Shown here piece by piece: positions 11,282-22,569 of a stretch of 32,000 nucleotides of DNA (position 1 is the first letter of the stretch; the number at the start of each line of letters is the position of its first letter). The stretch covers positions 150,001-182,000 of the forward strand of contig DXJG01000001.1 in assembly GCA_019056805.1 (NCBI GenBank), in the 5' to 3' direction. The position numbers and the translations under genes were made by a program. Under the pieces are notes generated by a model, which was not told the DNA's origin, ran no database searches, and worked only from the letters and a program-made list of their open reading frames with translations. The stretch comes from Candidatus Baldrarchaeota archaeon (lineage in GTDB: Archaea; Asgardarchaeota; Baldrarchaeia; Baldrarchaeales; DXJG01).

Positions 11282-13138
11282 CTACGCCCTAAGATATTTG
11301 AGGTTAAGAGGATTTATAATTTCTCCGTCTAGTGTATAGTGTATTCTCCTAATGAACTCTGCTCTTTTACCCTGGTTCCAGAGATATACCGGTCTATAAT
11401 AGCCTACGATTCTACTCCATACTTCTAGAGAATTTACATGTCCACATGTTGGACACTTCTCGATAATACCATGCCATACACTACCACAATTTCTACACGT
11501 TGTTATTGTTGGAGTGATAGTTAGATAAGCAATTTTTGTATTTGTGAGTACGCGGCGGACAAATTTCTTAAGGGCTTCAACTTCTGGTTTTTCCCAAAGC
11601 CATATGTGAGTTACACATCCTCCAGTAAAGTAGGGGTGAAACTCTGCTTCTATTCTTATTTTTTCATGTAAGGGTATTTCCGCATTATAGGGTACGTGAG
11701 TACTATTTGTATAATAGTATGCTCCAGGTTCGCCTTGAATACAAATATTTTCTGCTCCAAATTCTTTAGCATCCAACATAGCTAATCGGTAACTTGTGGA
11801 TTCAGCTGGTGTTTGTTCCAAATTATATAGAGTATTATCTAGCTCTTCAAACTCCTGGAGTTTATCCAGTATATGTCTTAGTATTTTCTTTGCCAGTCGT
11901 ATACCATCTTGCTCATATATTGGTACACCTGCCAAATTCATGAGACACTCATGCATACCTACTATTCCTATAGTATTGTAATGATTATCATAAGTTCCTA
12001 GATATTCTCTTGTTATAGGCAGATCAAAGAAATTGCTTCTTAATATATCATTAAGGAATTTTCTCTTTGTCATTAATTGTTGCCTAGCTATTTCAAGTCT
12101 TTCATCTAGTTTTGTGAAGAAATCATCTTCATCTTTTGCTAAGTACCCAAGTCGGGGTAGATTAATCGTTACAACTCCTATACTTCCTGTTTCGTCAGGA
12201 ACTGTCCATATTCCACCTGCATGTCTACATAATTTACCTATGTCCGGAAGTAGGCGACAACACATAGCAAATCTGCTGTTAGGATCTATATATCCATTCA
12301 GATAGTTTAAGAAGTAAAATGACCCACGTAAGGCTGTTAATTCAAAAATCTCATAAGTTAAATCTATATCTCCTAGAATCCATTTTCTTTCATTCCAATC
12401 AAAATTTTTATCAATTCCTATTGTAGGTATAGGGAATGTAAATGGTCTATGTTTACTATCTCCCTCTTTTAAAGTATCAATTAATCCATATGTTGTTATC
12501 ATGGCTTCTTCTATGTAATCACCTAGTGTTCCATGTTCTTTTCCACCTATTATGGCAGGTCTTTCTTGTTTTTCTCCATTTACACTAAAATTCAAAGTAA
12601 CATTTACAAAAGGACTTTGAGAACCGAATCTACTGGGGAAATTAAAATTAAAAACAAGTCTCTGAATATTTTGCTCTACTTCCTTAGGGTTTAATTTATC
12701 TACGTGTACAAAGGGAGCTAAATATAGATCAAAGTCTCCAAAGGCTTGTGCTCCTGCCCATTCTTGTTGTGAGGTACATATAAAGTTTATTATATGATCT
12801 ACAGCCGATGACATATGTTTTGCGGGAGACGCATAAACGTTTGGAGTTATTAAACCCTTTCTAAAAAGTCTTTCTAGACTCCATCCAGCACAGTAGGCTA
12901 TGAAGCGAGCAAAGGGTAAATCATGGATATGTATGTCTCCTCTTACATGTGCTTCTACTTGTTCTCTTGGATACCCATTTGATGAAAAAAGAGCATAATT
13001 TTTAAGGATTTCTTGCGCAACAAAGCCAAATAGCCCACTGAATGTTTTAAACGTGTTTGCATTTTCTCGAACAAGCCAAGTCTTTTCATACAAATATGAA
13101 TTAACGAGATCTTCTATGTTCATTAACGGTTTTTTCAC
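11282..13138 (-). CDS. nrdD: Class III anaerobic ribonucleoside-triphosphate reductase (no ATP cone)
   Basis: HIHDL, MCCRL, EQTPAES, CxxC..CxxC and the glycyl-radical loop SRIVGYYRPV. GTG start at 13138 chosen from GGAGGG upstream (the ORF track starts at 13174). Confidence 0.93.
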   Translation of the reverse strand: MKKPLMNIEDLVNSYLYEKTWLVRENANTFKTFSGLFGFVAQEILKNYALFSSNGYPREQVEAHVRGDIHIHDLPFARFIAYCAGWSLERLFRKGLITPNVYASPAKHMSSAVDHIINFICTSQQEWAGAQAFGDFDLYLAPFVHVDKLNPKEVEQNIQRLVFNFNFPSRFGSQSPFVNVTLNFSVNGEKQERPAIIGGKEHGTLGDYIEEAMITTYGLIDTLKEGDSKHRPFTFPIPTIGIDKNFDWNERKWILGDIDLTYEIFELTALRGSFYFLNYLNGYIDPNSRFAMCCRLLPDIGKLCRHAGGIWTVPDETGSIGVVTINLPRLGYLAKDEDDFFTKLDERLEIARQQLMTKRKFLNDILRSNFFDLPITREYLGTYDNHYNTIGIVGMHECLMNLAGVPIYEQDGIRLAKKILRHILDKLQEFEELDNTLYNLEQTPAESTSYRLAMLDAKEFGAENICIQGEPGAYYYTNSTHVPYNAEIPLHEKIRIEAEFHPYFTGGCVTHIWLWEKPEVEALKKFVRRVLTNTKIAYLTITPTITTCRNCGSVWHGIIEKCPTCGHVNSLEVWSRIVGYYRPVYLWNQGKRAEFIRRIHYTLDGEIINPLNLKYLRA

Positions 13139-14344: not shown

Positions 14345-15811
14345 TTAATATGTTAATTGTTGAAACAATGAAGTGACATTGTACGTAAGAAGGAAAATTA
14401 AGATGGTTAATAATATTTGTGACTTCATTCGAGGATCCATGGTTGCTTTACAATTCGCATAAGCTGTGATCACTGAAGTCGCTAATAAGGACATTACCAT
14501 GATTAAGTTATTAAATATAGGACTATACGATTTATTAAAAATAAACATTGTAGAATACGCTATCACAGGGATAATTGCTGATATAAAGCCCAACAATGCT
14601 GTTAAAGCTATTGTTATTATTCTTGCTTTTAATCTCTGAGTAGCTACTAAAGTTTCTCTTTTCCTAGTAAGTGTAACTATTTCTCTTAGTTTCGTTGAAA
14701 TTCCTGATATTTTTTCTCCAGATCTTTTTGAATCTTTTTCTATTATTTGAGCAGCAGTTTTTAAAGAAATTATAACATAAGGATGTTTAAAATTAGCTAT
14801 AAACTTAGCCCATGCAACTTTTAGCGGAGTTAAATTGAAAAACAAATCTTTAACCATAAGAGTCATCTTTCTGCTTACACTTTTTGAAACAGTTTTAATA
14901 GTTTCTGCTATAGCCTTTTCCGGCGAATAATTCAACTCAAGGAACTTACTGTAAGTTTCCAGGAACTCAGCACATTCCTCCAATTCATTTATCATAGTCC
15001 TTGCCTCTATCTTCATATCCCTTGATAAAGGTAACAATATTTTCTTACTGGGGAATTTTTGTAAAAATATTTGAACTAGAGGGATTGTAGGAATAAGCCA
15101 AGAATATCCCCAGAGGGTATAGGTCATAGTGAGGAGAAAAGGTAAAAAGGTAGAGACAGTTACTATAAGTAAAATTCTCATTTCTATTTCTCTGGTCATT
15201 TTTTCATACTCGTTTTCCATTTCACGAAAATATTCTTCAATATTACTCGTATTTTGTTTCCCAACACTTAAAATAGCTAATACAGCCGTTTTGAAATCAT
15301 TAGAAGGTTGAGTTAAAGCATAATCAAATAGCAATTTTTCTGGGGAGTGGCCAAACGACGTTTTCCTTAAAATGTCTCTAAATTTTTGAGATACTATGGG
15401 GTAGTTTGATTGCGCAATACTCTTTATTGCTTCAAATACGGAATCTGTTGCTTCTAAACTCAATGACAATTCATAAAATACAAGAGGAGCTAAACTGGCA
15501 TGTACAATCTTTTCGTTTGTATAAATCGAAGTAACAGAATTCTTAATCGAAAAAAACACAACATAAATTACAAAAAAAGAAAATACAGCCGCTAGGTAAG
15601 CTCCAATTCTTACCAGAAGTAAAAATGATATTAACCCGAAAAGTAAACTTAGTATAAAAGCTGTACTCAATAAAGCTGCAAATGAAATGTTAAAACGTTT
15701 TTTTAAATAGTCCGTTAGTTCTTCAGAATTTTTTCCCGCAATTTTTTCCCCAATTGTCAAAAGGAAATCCCATTTCTCGATTTTTGTAGCAAGGTATCTA
15801 ATTATATGCAA
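14345..15811 (-). CDS. Type II secretion F-domain (TadB/TadC/FlaJ-like) membrane platform protein
   Basis: Two repeats of the pattern 'soluble helical domain (GHSPEKLL / NYSPEKAI) followed by TM helices'. Confidence 0.65.
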   Translation of the reverse strand: MHIIRYLATKIEKWDFLLTIGEKIAGKNSEELTDYLKKRFNISFAALLSTAFILSLLFGLISFLLLVRIGAYLAAVFSFFVIYVVFFSIKNSVTSIYTNEKIVHASLAPLVFYELSLSLEATDSVFEAIKSIAQSNYPIVSQKFRDILRKTSFGHSPEKLLFDYALTQPSNDFKTAVLAILSVGKQNTSNIEEYFREMENEYEKMTREIEMRILLIVTVSTFLPFLLTMTYTLWGYSWLIPTIPLVQIFLQKFPSKKILLPLSRDMKIEARTMINELEECAEFLETYSKFLELNYSPEKAIAETIKTVSKSVSRKMTLMVKDLFFNLTPLKVAWAKFIANFKHPYVIISLKTAAQIIEKDSKRSGEKISGISTKLREIVTLTRKRETLVATQRLKARIITIALTALLGFISAIIPVIAYSTMFIFNKSYSPIFNNLIMVMSLLATSVITAYANCKATMDPRMKSQILLTILIFLLTYNVTSLFQQLTY

Positions 15812-15824
15812 TATTTACTTTCTC

Positions 15825-17822
15825 CTAAATGTTTATAGAGAATTCTAATATTTTCCGTTTACGCACTACTATAAAAATCCCTAATAGACAAGGTATACTA
15901 ATTATCTTCAAAAAATCTTTTAAAAAGGAATAAATATTTCTTGACGGTAAAACTTCGATTTCTATTCTCTTCAAAGAGGCTCCATAGAAATCCGAGCCGT
16001 TGTATTTGAACATAACTACTATTATAGCTGGTTCGGAAGGCATTTTCAATTTTACAATTACTTTTCCATCGTTGTTTGTTTTCACAGTATTTAATAATGA
16101 ATCATTAAGATAGACAGACAATTTTTCAAATTTCAACGGCATTCCTTCAATAGTTTGGAGAGTAACTTCACAAATTATGATTTCTTCGATTTTTACCCGT
16201 CTTGGTATATTTAGGATTAATTCAGTTGGTATCTTCTCAACAATTCTATAAATTACGTAATTTTCTGCATTTAAAAGATATTGTTCTGGGTTTCCTAAAT
16301 ACGTCACTTTTATTATTAATTGACCGAAAACAGCATTACTTGGAATAATATATGTTATTGTAGCTTTTCCTAAATCATCTGTAGTGACGTTTCCTATGTA
16401 TAAGTGATTGGTTATGTCGTAAGCATGTATGACTTTTCCTTGTAGGGGATCGTTTTGTAAAGTTTTAAGTTGAACGAAAAAAGATATCTGCATACTTCTA
16501 GCTACAAGAGTGATGTTATTTTCTTTTTTAACGACAAGATTTGGACGTTCGAAGACTAATATTGGAACTTTTAGCATAGTTGAATCATAAAATTCATCGC
16601 CTGGGAAATTGATCGTGATGAATGAGGGACCTTTAGCTTGAGAGACGTACCACTGTATTGTGGCGCATCCATTATCATTTGTGATTGTACTAGTCAGCAA
16701 GTTTCCTTGACTATCAAAAACTAACAATTCTCTAAATGGTACAGGATCGTTTTGGTCATCAAGAAGGGTAACATTTAATTTTGTTATTTCTCCACTAATT
16801 ACCGTTACATTACTGAAACAAAAATCGATATACGTAATACCTCTTATCGTAAGCGTAACATTTCTTTCCGCGTTTTCATACCTTGGACTACCAGCAAAAG
16901 AAACTGTATAAACATATTCTCCCGGGTCTGTATAGTTTGGTATATAAATAATAGCTTCAAAAAAACCAGTAGCATTTGTCCATGCTGAAGAGACGTTTCC
17001 TTTTTCATTTTTTACATAAATTGCGGCATTAACCAGAGGATCACCTTTTTCATCTACTAGTTTCCCTGTTATTGTTACAGTTTGGTTTCTATAAGCCACT
17101 TCGGGTTTTATTTCTAACATTGTTATATTAGTTTTTATTTTTCGAATATTAAGCGCTATAATACATGTACTTTTTTCGTAATACTGATAGGGACCAGCTT
17201 GAATAGTTAGTTCAATTTTTCCTTCAGAAGTTTTTGGCGAAGGTATATATCTTAAAACCGTCTCTCCTTTTTCGTTAGTAAATTGTTGATCAATTATCTT
17301 TTCTCCTTCTATTAACGATACATTTATTGCTTTTACGGGTTCTCCTACATCGTCTGTGACAGTAACATTAATAACAACTTCATCTCCTGGAGCCACTGTC
17401 TGATCATAAGGGTCTAAAGTCGTATCAGTCACTAAAATAGTTAGGTAGGTTTTTCCCATGACCGTCAAATAAAACACTTGATACGAAGGACTTAGGTTTT
17501 TAGCAAGATTTCCTCGGAAAGTTGCATTTAACACAAGTTGACCTGGAGAATAACTTTTTGGCACAGTCCATGATATTTGTGCAATTCCATTGTCATTTGT
17601 TACCGCTTCTCCTATGTACATGTTATGAGTTTCATCGTAGAAATATATCGTTTCGTTTACAACTGGTTCTCCTAAATCATCCTCTAAGGTTGCAGTAAGA
17701 GTAAGAGTCTGACCTCTATAGACAATAATTTCCTGACTTTGTGCATTTAGGACATTGAAGGAAAAATAACATAAAAGTATCACTAAGATAGCTAACGAGG
17801 CGATGATAAATACCCTTTTCAC
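15825..17822 (-). CDS. Secreted, C-terminally anchored surface protein with about 6 tandem Ig-like (Big) repeats
   Basis: N-terminal signal peptide; repeated TL.D..G.P....I.......G...T...G.A units of about 100 aa ending in F.G...Y; C-terminal TM followed by VRKRK. Confidence 0.8.
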   Translation of the reverse strand: MKRVFIIASLAILVILLCYFSFNVLNAQSQEIIVYRGQTLTLTATLEDDLGEPVVNETIYFYDETHNMYIGEAVTNDNGIAQISWTVPKSYSPGQLVLNATFRGNLAKNLSPSYQVFYLTVMGKTYLTILVTDTTLDPYDQTVAPGDEVVINVTVTDDVGEPVKAINVSLIEGEKIIDQQFTNEKGETVLRYIPSPKTSEGKIELTIQAGPYQYYEKSTCIIALNIRKIKTNITMLEIKPEVAYRNQTVTITGKLVDEKGDPLVNAAIYVKNEKGNVSSAWTNATGFFEAIIYIPNYTDPGEYVYTVSFAGSPRYENAERNVTLTIRGITYIDFCFSNVTVISGEITKLNVTLLDDQNDPVPFRELLVFDSQGNLLTSTITNDNGCATIQWYVSQAKGPSFITINFPGDEFYDSTMLKVPILVFERPNLVVKKENNITLVARSMQISFFVQLKTLQNDPLQGKVIHAYDITNHLYIGNVTTDDLGKATITYIIPSNAVFGQLIIKVTYLGNPEQYLLNAENYVIYRIVEKIPTELILNIPRRVKIEEIIICEVTLQTIEGMPLKFEKLSVYLNDSLLNTVKTNNDGKVIVKLKMPSEPAIIVVMFKYNGSDFYGASLKRIEIEVLPSRNIYSFLKDFLKIISIPCLLGIFIVVRKRKILEFSINI

Positions 17823-17963
17823 TTTTACCCATTTTATCTATGTTTATCTTAGAATTTAAACCCCTTGTCTTATATTGTATGGTATCTGTATCTCAGACAG
17901 ATTTATTTACATGAACCTAAACCTTAATAAGATACTAAATACTTCTAAAAAACGAAATAAGAG

Positions 17964-18251
17964 GTGTGCATCTTGAGCGTAATTACTAAGAATATAGTTA
18001 AATTACTACGTATGATATCTTTGGTCTTTGTCATTATTTCAATTGCCAGTCTCATTTATATATCGATTAACGGGCTTAACCTCTTATCATCTGCAATATT
18101 TCTTGTTTTTATCTATCTTTTCGGGATAACACTAGGTACCGCTGGAAAAATTGAAGAAAAAGAAGAAACAAAACCTAAAATTTTATTAGAATGGAGTGCC
18201 GCTTGCCTAGTCGGAGTTATTCTCCTAACATTAGTTATTTTCTTCTCATAA
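17964..18251 (+). CDS. Small 3-TM membrane protein of unknown function
   Basis: 95-aa ORF with three hydrophobic segments; GAGGTG at 17961-17966 suggests a TTG start at 17973. Confidence 0.6.
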   Translation: MCILSVITKNIVKLLRMISLVFVIISIASLIYISINGLNLLSSAIFLVFIYLFGITLGTAGKIEEKEETKPKILLEWSAACLVGVILLTLVIFFS

Positions 18252-18390
18252 CGATTCTAAGAGTAAACTAAGAGGTGGGTTTAAAAACTCAGCGAAACAT
18301 TTTTTGAATACAAAATATATTTCCATAGGGAAATATTCACACACCTAACATAATTGTATAATTAATTTCTAATAACCAGGTGGTGATGAA

Positions 18391-19092
18391 ATGTCGACTG
18401 AAATCATCCGAGGAGTTCCTCCCACTAGAAACTTAGGGTGTCTAAAACTGGCACCCTAAGCTAGAATGGAACTCCTCATCCTTAGAAGGCGAAAAATTCT
18501 TGCAGAAAAAGGTAGAGATTTACTTGAAGAAAAAAGGGACGCTTTAATTATGGAATTTCGAGACGTTTTGGAAAGAACATATAAACTACGGAACGAAGCT
18601 AACAAAAGTTTAGAAGAGGCGTTTAAGGAATTATCAGAAGTAAAAATGCTTATGGGACCTTTAATGATCGAAGAAATTGCGAGTAACATTCCTTCAACAT
18701 TAGAACTCGAAGTAAAAACGAGGAATATAATGGGAGTCAGAGTACCAATTTTGAGGGTTAAAGAAAAACAAAACGAAGAACCTGTGCTTTATAGTTTCAT
18801 CGATACTTCTTCCAAACTTGATACAGCCATTAAAAAATTTAGAAACGCCCTGAGAGCAATCTTAAGACTGGCGGAAACAGAAGGAGCTGTTAGAAGGTTG
18901 GCAGAAGAAATAAAAAAGACAAAAAGAAGAGTTAACGCCTTAAAATACGTAATTATTCCTAAGATAGAAAACACGATAAAATATATTGAATTTTACCTTG
19001 AGGAAATGGAAAGAGAAGACTTCTTTAGGCTCAAGCGAATTAAGAGTTTATTGGAAAGAAAAGCAGGAGAACGTATTAAAGCATCAACTTAA
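18391..19092 (+). CDS. atpD: A/V-type ATP synthase subunit D, intron-split: join(18391..18430,18467..19092), 221 aa
   Basis: ATG at 18391 with GGTGGTGA upstream. Removing 36 nt gives MSTEIIRGVPPTRMELLILRRRK, restoring the conserved P-T-R-M-E-L N-terminal motif. C-terminal TKRRVNALKYVIIP is present. Confidence 0.9.
18431..18466 (+). other. Predicted 36-nt bulge-helix-bulge/loop mRNA intron in atpD
   Basis: Central helix CUAG(18425-28)/CUAG(18461-64); bulges AA^A and AA^U; 11-bp intron stem (18432-42 with 18450-60); 10-bp exon-exon stem (18410-19 with 18468-77); in-frame TAA at 18457-59. Confidence 0.85.
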
Positions 19093-19110
19093 TTTTTTAT
19101 TATCAAGTAA

Positions 19111-19476
19111 TTATGTGTTTTTTGATGATTTTAGCAGTAAAATTGCCTGTGCTAAGTCTCCGCCAGTTTGTTCTAAAGCTTTTTTTGCGTCATCAATACT
19201 GACTCCTGCTTGAGCAGCAACTAGTTGAATGTCCTCCATAGGTATCTCTAATTTCTCTTCCTTTGTCTCTATTGGCCGTTGCTCAGCCTCTCCGAGGACT
19301 TGATAAAGATCCTGTCCACTAACTTTCATTAAAGTTACTTGCGGATTCCTAATAATAATTTCATTATCACTCAGCCTTATTATTACTTCTTTTACTCCAG
19401 CAAGTTCCTGTATTTTTATTCCCATTTGCTTCATGAGTTTTTTCATCATTTTTGGGCTCATTCGTCGAGGGATCAT
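19111..19476 (-). CDS. nac: Nascent polypeptide-associated complex protein (archaeal NAC)
   Basis: KKLMKQMGIK, EVIIR and NPQV motifs; C-terminal UBA domain EDIQLVAAQAGVS...GDLAQAI; GGAGGT ribosome-binding site. Confidence 0.95.
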   Translation of the reverse strand: MIPRRMSPKMMKKLMKQMGIKIQELAGVKEVIIRLSDNEIIIRNPQVTLMKVSGQDLYQVLGEAEQRPIETKEEKLEIPMEDIQLVAAQAGVSIDDAKKALEQTGGDLAQAILLLKSSKNT

Positions 19477-19488
19477 ATTTCGTACCTC

Positions 19489-20706
19489 CTAGCCATACAT
19501 GTCATTTTCAACTCTGGATGTCTTTTCGTTTTTTCTCTTTAAAACTTTATCAATTGCTTTTAGAAAATCAGAAAATGTAACTTTGACTCTTCGTTCTCTT
19601 ATGGCGAAAACTCCAGCTTCAGTACAGATAGCTTTAATATCTGCTCCAGTAGCACCTTCTGTTATTTTTGCCAATTCCCTTAACTCCACATCACTGGCGA
19701 GATTCATCTTCCTTGTGTGTATCTGAAAGATTTCTAATCTACCTTGTTGATTGGGAAGAGGAAACTCTATTATTCTATCAAATCTTCCAGGCCTTAACAA
19801 AGCTGGATCTAACATATCAGGTCTATTTGTTGCAGCCAAAATTCTAACATCACCTCTGGCGTCAAATCCATCTAAGGTACTAAGAAGCTGCATTAATGTT
19901 CTTTGTACTTCTTTATCACCACTAGTTGTTACATCGTATCTCTTTGAACCGATTGCATCTATTTCATCTATAAATACTATACTTGGCGCTTTTTTCTGTG
20001 CTAAGTGAAATATTTCCCTTACTAATCTGGCACCTTCTCCAATGTATTTTTGAACGAGTTCCGACCCTATTACCCTTATGAAAGTAGCTTTCGTCTCGTG
20101 AGCAACTGCTCTGGCAACTAAAGTTTTACCAGTTCCAGGAGGCCCACAGAAAAGGACCCCTTTCGGCGGGTCAATTCCAACTTTCTCAAAAAGCTCGGGA
20201 TGAGTTAGGGGTAACTCCACACACTCCTTAACTTCTCTTAGTTGCTCATGTAATCCTCCAATATCGTTATAAGTTACAGGCGGTGATTCTTCTACCTCCA
20301 TTCCCCTTACAAATGGGTCATATGATGGTGGAAGGACTTCAACAACAGCAAAAGTTCTCTGATTTAAAGCAACTCTAACTCCAGGATGAATTTTTTCACG
20401 TGGCACCATCGGAGATACATGAACCACAAAGTTCGGACCTGTAGAACTTTTAACTATCACTCTACCATCAGAAAGAATTTCGGTAACCGTTGCGGCAATT
20501 AAAGGTGGATACTTTAATCTTTCAATCTCCATTCTTAAAGCATTCAATTCTCTCTCTAAACGCACTTTTTCTGCGTCCAGTAATTGTTTTTCGGTTTCAA
20601 GCATTCTTAATCGTCTTTCTAAATGCTTCGTATAGCTAAGAAGATAGGAAATATCTTCATCGTCAACATATATCCTTTTTTTGGACTCAGTTGAGTTTGG
20701 CAACAA
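19489..20706 (-). CDS. pan: Proteasome-activating nucleotidase
   Basis: N-terminal coiled coil, OB domain, [29 protein letters not shown], and C-terminal HbYX motif MYG. Confidence 0.96.
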
Positions 20707-20718
20707 TGTCCCTCCGTC

Positions 20719-20750
20719 GAAGTTATAAGAAGTTCAAGTCCCTATATATT
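20719..20750. promoter_or_regulatory. Divergent BRE-TATA promoters for mbf1 (+) and pan (-)
   Basis: GGAAGTTATAAG on the plus strand (20719-20730) and AAGAATATATAG on the minus strand within the 73-bp gap. Confidence 0.4.
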
Positions 20751-20779
20751 CTTGTCGTGGTTTTGGGGGCGTCACAAAT

Positions 20780-21292
20780 TTGAGATGTGAAATCTGTGGA
20801 CGAAAAATCCAAGGCACACCTAAGCATATAATCGTAGAAGGCGCCAAACTAGTTGTATGCAAAATTTGTGCTAAATTTGGATCAGAAACTCCAGTAGCTA
20901 CTACGCAAAGCAAAATTTCAACAAAAAGAACACTAAAAATTCCTAAAAAACCGGTTCAAAGAAGGGTAAAATACATATCAAAGCCCATAATGTTTGAAGA
21001 AGACTACGAACTAGTAGAAAACTTTGGAGAAAAAGTTAAAAAAGCAAGAGAAAAATTAGGATGGAAACAAGAAGACCTAGCAAGAGAAATTAAAGAAAAA
21101 GAATCAATAATAAGTAAAATTGAAACTATGGAAATAACGCCACCACTAAATACAATTAAGAAACTAGAAAAAGTTCTAAACATAAAACTTACAGTACCAG
21201 CATCCAAAATATCCGAAACCCCACCACTATCTACAAAGGAGCCATCTTTAACTCTAGGAGATGCCATAATACTTAAAAAGAAGAAAAAATAA
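20780..21292 (+). CDS. mbf1: Archaeal multiprotein bridging factor aMBF1
   Basis: N-terminal Zn ribbon CEICG..VCKICAKFG, Cro-type HTH, and C-terminal LTLGD motif. Confidence 0.95.
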   Translation: MRCEICGRKIQGTPKHIIVEGAKLVVCKICAKFGSETPVATTQSKISTKRTLKIPKKPVQRRVKYISKPIMFEEDYELVENFGEKVKKAREKLGWKQEDLAREIKEKESIISKIETMEITPPLNTIKKLEKVLNIKLTVPASKISETPPLSTKEPSLTLGDAIILKKKKK

Positions 21293-21303
21293 ATGGTGAT
21301 ACA

Positions 21304-22569
21304 ATGAAAGCTTTACTTGTCGAAGTAATTCAGTCCGCCAACGATAGTAGACTGGAAGAATTCAAAGAACTCGCAAAAGCAGCTGGCTATGAAATAGAAG
21401 GAGTCTTACAGCAAATACGAAACTCACCAGATCCAGCCTATTGCTTGGGAAAAGGAAAAGCCGAAGAACTCGCACAACTGGCAAAAATGCTAAAACCAGA
21501 CAAAATAATCTTTAACAAAGAATTAAAACCAAATCAAACAATAAATTTAGAGAACTTGACTAAAACAGAAGTTATCGATAGAATCCAACTTATTCTTGAA
21601 ATATTCACAAAAAGAGCAGGTACAAAAGAAGCTAAACTTCAAATAGAATTAGCAAAACTAAAGTACCTTCTTCCCAAACTAAAAATGTATGTCAAATACA
21701 CGAAAAAGGAAGAATTCCCAGGATTTCACGGCCCAGGATACTACCAAACAGCTAAGTATGAAAGAATGATCAGAAAAAGAATAGCTAAAATAGAAAGAGA
21801 ACTTGAAAAAATTAGGTATGAAAGAGAAGAGAGAAGAAAAATTAGACGAGAACTTGGATTTTCACTTGTAGCTTTAGCCGGATATAGCAATGCAGGAAAA
21901 TCCACTCTACTAAATAGACTAACGAAATCAAATGTTCCAGCAGATGATAGGCTATTCACTACTCTAGGCACATACACTAGATTTGCATACTTTAATGGCA
22001 AAAAAGTTCTTATAAGCGATACAATAGGATTTGTTGAAAATTTACCACATTTGGTCATTGAGGCATTTAAATCGACATTAGAAGAAATCACATTAGCCGA
22101 TTTAATTATACTGGTTGTTGATGCAAGTGAACCATTACATGAGATAGAAAGGAAGATAAAAACAGCTAACGACGTCTTGGAGGAGGTTGGTGCGACAGGA
22201 AAACCGGTTCTCATGGCTTTAAATAAAATAGATAAAATTTCCTCAGAAGAAATCAAAGAAAAAGTATCAAAATTAGAAGGACTTGCGCAGGATATTGTTC
22301 CCATCTCGGCGCTATATGGTTATAATCTAGATAAGTTATCTATTAAAGCAGAACAACTTCTACCAAAATATGTTAAAATAGAAGCTCACATACCTTTAAA
22401 ACAAGATGCCGGTCTTTTAATTTCACATATATACAACAGAGGAAATGTTAAACAAGTTGTATATTTTAACGATGAAATTAAAATGCAGTTCGAAGTATTA
22501 CCACATACATCCGAATATTTCAGAAAAATCATAGAAAGAGCTGGTGGAACATTAGAAATCATGCAATGA
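21304..22569 (+). CDS. hflX: GTPase HflX
   Basis: LILEIF..RA..KEAKLQIELA, GYSNAGKS, LFTTL, DTIGF and NKID motifs. Confidence 0.96.
   Translation: MKALLVEVIQSANDSRLEEFKELAKAAGYEIEGVLQQIRNSPDPAYCLGKGKAEELAQLAKMLKPDKIIFNKELKPNQTINLENLTKTEVIDRIQLILEIFTKRAGTKEAKLQIELAKLKYLLPKLKMYVKYTKKEEFPGFHGPGYYQTAKYERMIRKRIAKIERELEKIRYEREERRKIRRELGFSLVALAGYSNAGKSTLLNRLTKSNVPADDRLFTTLGTYTRFAYFNGKKVLISDTIGFVENLPHLVIEAFKSTLEEITLADLIILVVDASEPLHEIERKIKTANDVLEEVGATGKPVLMALNKIDKISSEEIKEKVSKLEGLAQDIVPISALYGYNLDKLSIKAEQLLPKYVKIEAHIPLKQDAGLLISHIYNRGNVKQVVYFNDEIKMQFEVLPHTSEYFRKIIERAGGTLEIMQ

Follow-up and report, generated by a model that had tools for sequence, protein, structure and literature searches.

How does an archaeal gene make the conserved N-terminus of its protein when a stop codon interrupts the reading frame just behind that N-terminus? 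This question is raised by atpD, the gene for subunit D of the V/A-ATPase, in a window of 32,000 nt from a Candidatus Baldrarchaeota archaeon (contig DXJG01000001.1, positions 150,001 to 182,000; positions below are those of the window). Gene callers report this atpD as a 208-amino-acid open reading frame (ORF) that starts at ATG 18466. Another ATG lies 75 nt upstream in the same frame, at 18391, and 36 nt (18431-18466) are inserted between the PTR and MELL codons of the gene. We consider it highly probable, on the basis of sequence comparison and RNA folding, that the insert is a pre-mRNA intron of the bulge-helix-bulge (BHB) type, cut by the splicing endonuclease EndA and joined by RtcB.

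The locus contains the following elements.

18379-18387, plus strand: Shine-Dalgarno-like site GGTGGTGAT, read directly from the sequence, which precedes the start codon of exon 1.
18391-18430, plus strand: exon 1, of 13 codons (MSTEIIRGVPPTR), which ends on base 1 of the Met codon.
18431-18466, plus strand: predicted intron of 36 nt, whose position is shared by 13 loci of the genus; 8 distinct sequences occur, and one of these has 37 nt.
18457-18459, plus strand: in-frame TAA, which closes the 22-amino-acid frame of unspliced exon 1; it lies within the 3' arm of the conserved hairpin and is found in every 36-nt variant.
18467-19092, plus strand: exon 2, which begins with bases 2 and 3 of the Met codon, ends with the stop codon and holds the remainder of atpD.

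When 18431-18466 was removed in silico, MSTEIIRGVPPTR was joined to MELLILRRRK... in frame and with no gap or insertion. The insert is bracketed by a CTAGAA direct repeat at 18425-18430 and 18461-18466, and seven alternative 36-nt deletions give the identical product. The spliced mRNA is predicted to have the junction ...CCCACUAGA-AUGGAACUC... The rebuilt P-T-R-M-E-L junction agrees with more than 100 relatives. Subunit D of Thermus thermophilus, known from solved V/A-ATPase structures, has the same V-x-P-T-R-M-x-L-L start, and the xIIxGVxPTR motif of exon 1 agrees with the N-termini of both the intron-less relatives and the Thermus subunit. The 208-amino-acid ORF covers the full Pfam ATP-synt_D profile (E 9e-66) and is the form given in the public annotation; relatives outside the genus are mostly 211-229 amino acids long. 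If the insert is spliced out, the publicly annotated atpD product would be an N-terminally truncated protein.

The RNA of the locus was folded with RNAfold over 18405-18485 (81 nt), with 200 shuffles as a control. The minimum free energy (MFE) structure has -39.4 kcal/mol and accounts for 92% of the ensemble, compared with -16.5 +/- 3.0 for the shuffles (z -7.5), and 0/200 shuffles folded as well. The parts of this predicted structure, from the outside to the inside, are listed here.

18410-18419, plus strand: 5' strand of the outer helix h (RNAfold), a perfect exon-exon helix of 10 bp; 10/10 pairs are kept in 7 distinct sequences, the sole change being U-A to U-G.
18468-18477, plus strand: 3' strand of the outer helix h, the other half of the exon-exon helix (RNAfold).
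18420-18424, plus strand: 5 unpaired exon nt opposite the 3' bulge, whose third codon positions vary freely (T/G/A; C/T/A).
18425-18428, plus strand: 5' strand, CUAG, of the central helix H, 4 bp (RNAfold), invariant in 7 distinct sequences.
18461-18464, plus strand: 3' strand, CUAG, of the central helix H (RNAfold), invariant in 7 distinct sequences.
18429-18431, plus strand: 5' bulge AAA of 3 nt, with a cut between 18430 and 18431 predicted from the BHB cut rule.
18465-18467, plus strand: 3' bulge AAU of 3 nt, with a cut predicted between 18466 and 18467.
18432-18460, plus strand: intron hairpin h', an 11-bp stem (18432-42 with 18450-60, including one U-G pair) and a 7-nt loop at 18443-49 (RNAfold).

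Cuts after nucleotide 2 of each bulge give CCC ACU AGA A/UG GAA, which reads PTR/MEL across the joint (the slash marks the joint here and below). The structure departs from the strict hBHBh' form: h' adjoins the 5' bulge, but 5 unpaired nt separate h from H. Since these 5 nt face the 3' bulge in a 5x3 internal loop at the 3' site, the modelled motif is classed as a relaxed BHB, similar to the HBh' or bulge-helix-loop (BHL) type. A first-pass annotation of this DNA had read the locus in much the same way. It had described a stop-containing insert of 36 nt at 18431-18466, an upstream ATG at 18391 with a ribosome-binding site, a called ORF that misses the conserved N-terminus, and a 22-residue peptide as the product of the unspliced mRNA. 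Our reading of the sequence agrees on each point: the TAA is at 18457-18459, GGTGGTGAT precedes the frame that codes for MSTEIIRGVPPTR, and the relatives run through ...PTR-MELL... uninterrupted. The fold that it had drawn, with a 10-bp exon stem, a CUAG/CUAG helix, two bulges and an 11-bp hairpin, is exactly the MFE structure, and its cut rule rebuilds the codons for TRME. Its label 'BHB/BHL' was wide enough to take in the motif, which proves relaxed rather than strict.

In a scan of the whole window for relaxed BHB motifs, the atpD site was by far the strongest match. The one other tidy match was a fold similar to a strict BHB at 12030-12070 (plus strand), with an AAAU/AUUU helix and an 8-bp hairpin. 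It is antisense to an intact 630-amino-acid ORF, which we take to be an anaerobic ribonucleotide reductase, and it was judged a chance structure. A genome-wide ab initio scan for strict BHB motifs gave 747 matches, mostly AT-rich chance structures, and was uninformative. No Rfam family matched the insert at E values up to 1. A self-splicing group I or group II intron was also considered and rejected: the insert is only 36 nt long, compared with a ribozyme core of hundreds of nucleotides, and no such Rfam family matched.

The intron-bearing set consists of the window and 12 further loci, which come from two genomes, six JGI contigs, three Logan contigs and one more JGI contig. These 12 loci are 83-98% identical to the window in AtpD protein and were therefore placed in the same genus. 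The insert is at the identical site in all 13 atpD loci of the genus. The first-pass annotation had suggested that the insertion and the exon stem be looked for in relatives; both are conserved throughout the genus and absent from the 27 Asgard atpD loci outside the genus in which the junction was read. All 27 are uninterrupted, nearly all with ...G(V/I)xPTR-MELL..., and about 70 metagenome atpD loci are likewise uninterrupted at the junction. The loci without the insert include those of Baldrarchaeum yapensis (58% identity), which stands for the sister genus within the order, and of Jord-, Freyr-, Atabey- and Odin-type archaea. When the full-length AtpD was used as a query against 400 Asgard genomes, 351 had a match. 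Among the best 150 of these 351, only three members of the genus start at residue 10-12 behind a closed frame, and one other late-starting atpD is at a contig end. Apparent stops inside the atpD matches of four other Asgard genomes were merely natural stop codons. Judged from this distribution, a single intron gain in the ancestor of the genus would be the parsimonious account.

The insert is real DNA: contigs assembled separately from three runs, which belong to two studies, contain it in identical form. No intron-less allele was found in the contigs of four DNA runs; they contained intron-bearing DNA only, which is uninformative on splicing. The record of one intron-bearing congener, JAGGSW010000147.1, bears the name 'Candidatus Odinarchaeota archaeon AUK032'. 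In AtpD, however, this congener shares 86% identity with Baldrarchaeia sequences and about 52-54% with Odinarchaeia loci. To judge from its AtpD sequence, the Odinarchaeota label is probably out of date.

At four-fold degenerate sites of atpD, 43-54% differ between the window and the other clade. The core of the intron comprises 25 positions, namely the third bulge nucleotide, the two 9-nt arms, CUAG and AA, and 0/25 differ between the same two clades. The chance that 25 neutral sites would all remain unchanged is (1-0.5)^25, or about 3e-8. In the tip of the hairpin and its loop, 6/11 positions differ between the clades, which is about the neutral rate, and the basal 9 bp are invariant. Among all pair cells of the alignment, 98.3% are standard pairs, compared with 30-50% when the partners were slid. 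Two hairpin pairs have compensatory changes on both sides. Strain L044, which is 98% identical to the window, has one stem pair changed from U-A to G-C and another from G-C to G-U, and a distal stem pair occurs as C-G, G-C, A-U and G-U.

The exons show a similar pattern. Five four-fold sites within the exon helix (CGA, GGA, GTT, CTC, CTC) never vary. The sole change in the helix is at a two-fold site, GAA to GAG, where U-A becomes U-G and the pairing is kept. Outside the helices, all five third positions of exon 1 vary (GAA/GAG; ATC/ATT; ATC/ATA/ATT; CCT/CCG/CCA; CCC/CCT/CCA). Thus the varying synonymous sites are 5/5 outside and 1/6 inside the helix (one-sided Fisher p about 0.013). Selection on the RNA structure, which the first-pass annotation had suspected from the perfect pairing of two coding segments, is borne out by these frozen four-fold sites in the helix and the free sites in the loop. 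The core intron and the exon helix are, as far as the alignments tell, under purifying selection on the RNA. The locus thereby offers a clean example of RNA-structure constraint in synonymous sites.

Exon 1 has only synonymous changes in EIIRGVPPTR across the 8 variants, and it is therefore also under selection at the protein level. Its start codon is kept as ATG or GTG, and GGTGGTG(A/G)TGA before the start is invariant in six relatives, with the rest of the upstream region heavily diverged. In the 37-nt variant, from locus L204, the exons share a reading frame only if precisely the piece defined by the BHB is taken out, and the cuts again give PTR/MEL.

The pairing also touches a residue of the protein. 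At 18418-18420 (CCT, Pro10), the intron-bearing genus reads GVPPTR; in its closest Asgard relatives, namely Atabey-, Jord- and Freyr-type loci and Baldrarchaeum, the motif is G(V/I)HPTR. Both C's of the Pro10 codon pair with the GG of AUGGAA and close the exon helix. The AtpD protein sequence may thus have been bent to serve the RNA fold at Pro10.

The flanks of the insert resemble those of a mobile element, and the locus might instead carry a palindromic element similar to a miniature inverted-repeat transposable element (MITE) with a 6-bp target-site duplication, as neutral or slightly harmful junk or in a decaying gene. The 30-nt insert has inverted ends of 9-11 nt and stands between the two CTAGAA copies of the direct repeat. 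In relatives that lack the intron, such as L009 and L016 (ACTAGAATGGA), CTAGAA occurs here only once. BHB geometry around a palindromic CUAG requires the inverted ends and the direct repeat as well. Against such an element, no further copy of the insert was found by BLAST, by a fuzzy search for its arms or by a search of the whole genome; the best other match, of 16 nt, is in an ORF of contig C10, forms no hairpin and was attributed to chance. The insert has been inherited vertically across lineages whose synonymous sites are saturated, its core is under strong purifying selection, and atpD is intact, single-copy and conserved. We regard it as very unlikely that the insert is now such an element. 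A MITE-type insertion with a 6-bp duplication may be the origin of the insert, as distinct from its present nature, and is attractive as such, since the doubled CTAG would pair with itself into the central helix. The first-pass annotation had named a second intact atpD, a decaying gene copy and a MITE as what would speak against its intron reading; all the checks it had suggested that can be run in silico favoured an intron. We found no second atpD in the host genome (1.92 Mb, 91% complete) and no other copy of the insert, and the synonymous-only changes of exon 1, the invariant ribosome-binding site and the intact atpD speak against decay.

The enzymes that an EndA-type intron would need are encoded in the host genome. 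There are two EndA paralogues, of 184 and 178 amino acids. The 184-amino-acid EndA has its highest similarity to 3P1Z_B (E 1e-44), the catalytic alpha subunit of the heterotetramer from Aeropyrum pernix. The alignment is gap-free across the 'Crenarchaea-specific loop', where K39 and K41 correspond to K44 and R46. The sequence of the 178-amino-acid paralogue fits a beta subunit. RtcB is also encoded (E 4e-183). The specificity loop confers on EndA the cleavage of relaxed BHL substrates (PMC3241643), and Asgard EndAs have been reported as (alpha-beta)2 enzymes with this loop (PMC5829648). With aragorn, only 19 tRNA genes were found in the 91%-complete genome, 12 of them with introns; non-canonical or multiple introns probably hide most of the tRNA genes. 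This result is consistent with the heavily interrupted tRNA genes that have been published for other Asgard classes (PMC11291895; bioRxiv 10.64898/2026.10.13.758758).

A second gene of the same genome, outside the window, is split in a similar way. The pyrG gene (C9:155010-155046, minus strand) has an insert of 32 nt; the central helix is CCCC/GGGG, and the bulges are UAA and AAU. BHB cuts rebuild KIDP-Y-LNVDPG, and the Tyr codon, UA/U, spans the joint. Since this codon arises across the joint, only RNA joining can repair pyrG. Further, glyA, the gene for serine hydroxymethyltransferase (SHMT), at C6:43039-44102 on the minus strand and also outside the window, has its Pfam match in two pieces and a further in-frame TAA, and GC-rich hairpins are located at the breaks. 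For fbp, a search of the genome with Pfam FBPase_3 gave one open frame with no stops, and introns were not confirmed with this query.

Several observations weigh against an intron in atpD. The 5 unpaired nt that face the 3' bulge are a departure from the strict hBHBh' form. The covariation score was reached by 19/500 shuffles; the genus is shallow and the power limited, and we attribute the moderate outcome of this control to the shallow sample. A genome completeness of 91% leaves room for a second atpD. From the stop to the downstream ATG there are 7 nt (1 nt in the 37-nt variant), as is typical of translational coupling. Finally, the AGA codons before and after the gap are matched within the CTAGAA repeat, as suits a ribosome that hops from one to the other.

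The coupling distance would suit an account without splicing, in which the insert is tolerated. The 22-amino-acid leader would end at TAA 18457, and re-initiation (or direct initiation) at ATG 18466 would give a 208-amino-acid subunit D without the first 13 residues, which is the product annotated publicly. A leader of this kind would be dispensable, but exon 1 has preserved the ancestral N-terminus of AtpD with synonymous changes only, at about 50% neutral divergence, and its PTR motif is conserved from Thermus to Asgard archaea. In addition, ATG 18466 has no Shine-Dalgarno site and is buried in a structure of -39 kcal/mol. Re-initiation leaves the 25 frozen intron positions and the exon helix in BHB geometry unexplained. 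We consider such initiation at ATG 18466 unlikely.

The matched codons suggest programmed translational bypassing, in which the peptidyl-tRNA-Arg would hop from AGA 18427-29 to AGA 18463-65 and the same 221-amino-acid product would be made. The gap contains a stable hairpin, and the hop would also work for the 37-nt variant. Phage T4 gene 60 and the mitochondrial byp elements are similar to atpD in having a short, hairpin-bearing non-coding gap between matched codons and a continuous product. However, these elements work through the ribosome and leave the RNA itself uncut, and neither the BHB geometry nor the conserved exon helix of atpD belongs to their mechanism. The codon after take-off is an ordinary AAC, neither a stop nor a rare codon. 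The 10-bp exon-exon helix would be useless in a hop, with its 5' strand already behind the ribosome, and the direct repeat follows from the self-pairing of the palindromic CUAG. Moreover, pyrG has no matched codons, and the Tyr codon across its joint needs RNA joining. We know of no translational bypassing in archaea, and we consider a hop in atpD extremely improbable.

From the anatomy of the site, the repair in silico, the conservation, the selection pattern and the enzyme genes, we infer cleavage, ligation and the dependence of the protein on both. In the splicing that we propose, transcription would start upstream of ATG 18391, and the pre-mRNA is predicted to fold so that the 10-bp exon-exon helix and the 11-bp hairpin clamp CUAG/CUAG between the two 3-nt bulges. 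An (alpha-beta)2 EndA would cut between 18430 and 18431 and between 18466 and 18467, as suggested by the known rule and by the tolerance of this enzyme type for relaxed motifs. RtcB would ligate the exons and probably circularise the 36-nt intron. The spliced mRNA would give a 221-amino-acid subunit D with the universal ...GVxPTR-MELL... N-terminus, and the flanking codons would have become fixed after the intron was gained, maintaining the exon helix. Full-length subunit D thus probably requires that its mRNA be cut and re-joined. The 81-nt RNA, with its clear cut prediction, is a small and defined substrate for the specificity of Asgard EndA.

No report of an atpD intron or of an Asgard mRNA intron was found in the full-text literature searched, which returned only work related to tRNA and rRNA; the first-pass annotation had likewise known of no intron in atpD. 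To our knowledge, cbf5 of Crenarchaeota is the only archaeal protein-coding gene for which an intron of the endonuclease type has experimental proof, and its pre-mRNA intron was reportedly described by Watanabe in 2002. The cbf5 intron of Aeropyrum, Sulfolobales and Desulfurococcales often has a relaxed BHB, is linked to a hetero-oligomeric EndA, has been gained and lost in specific lineages, and is mis-annotated by gene callers (Yokobori 2009, PMC2738675). The atpD insert is like it in all of these respects, as a short, lineage-specific and mis-annotated putative intron in a coding sequence, with a relaxed BHB-type fold and a hetero-oligomeric EndA. It differs in its gene, in the phylum of its host (Asgard, Baldrarchaeia), in its position between codons 13 and 14, and in its unusually long exon-exon helix (10 bp) and the 5x3 internal loop at the 3' site. 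Splicing of cbf5 has been experimentally shown, whereas that of atpD is predicted.

Archaeal tRNA introns are similar to the atpD insert in the presumed use of EndA and RtcB, in the cut rule, in the size range (12-70 nt) and in the anatomy of a hairpin plus bulges. However, the host RNA of the atpD insert is an mRNA, with no tRNA body to aid recognition, and the exon half of the motif is made of codons, which constrains synonymous sites. In eukaryotes, the mRNAs of HAC1 and XBP1 are cleaved by IRE1 and ligated by RtcB or Trl1, and this splicing is regulated by stress. The splicing proposed for atpD would have in common with theirs a short, spliceosome-independent mRNA intron, RNA stem-loops, and joining by a tRNA ligase that alters the protein. 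The differences are the nuclease, which is IRE1 and not EndA, the motif and the known regulation by stress. Splicing of the HAC1/XBP1 type has been named in PMC13149111.

More tentatively, and with less chance of being right than of being wrong, the genus might rely on obligatory splicing by EndA and RtcB for several housekeeping mRNAs (atpD, pyrG), and the atpD insert may keep the birth mark of the intron. In the former case, a close relative of eukaryotes would need mRNA splicing for an essential machine of its energy conversion. A 30-nt palindromic insert would have hit a palindromic CTAG target and caused the 6-bp duplication. Because CTAG is palindromic, the duplicated copies would pair, which would give the central helix and both BHB bulges at once. 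Neighbouring codons, including the His to Pro change from GVHPTR to GVPPTR, would later have been recruited into the 10-bp clamp. The duplication-like flanks suggest a testable route of intron origin.

In the surrounding part of the window (14345-22569), atpD is isolated, with atpA and atpB located elsewhere. In its neighbourhood are genes for a T2SS-F-like membrane protein and a 665-amino-acid surface protein with Ig-like domains, and a 95-amino-acid membrane ORF. Further neighbours, identified by reading the ORFs, are presumably NAC, the proteasome-activating ATPase PAN and an MBF1-like protein. The order surface protein, small ORF, atpD, NAC and PAN is common to all intron-bearing relatives.

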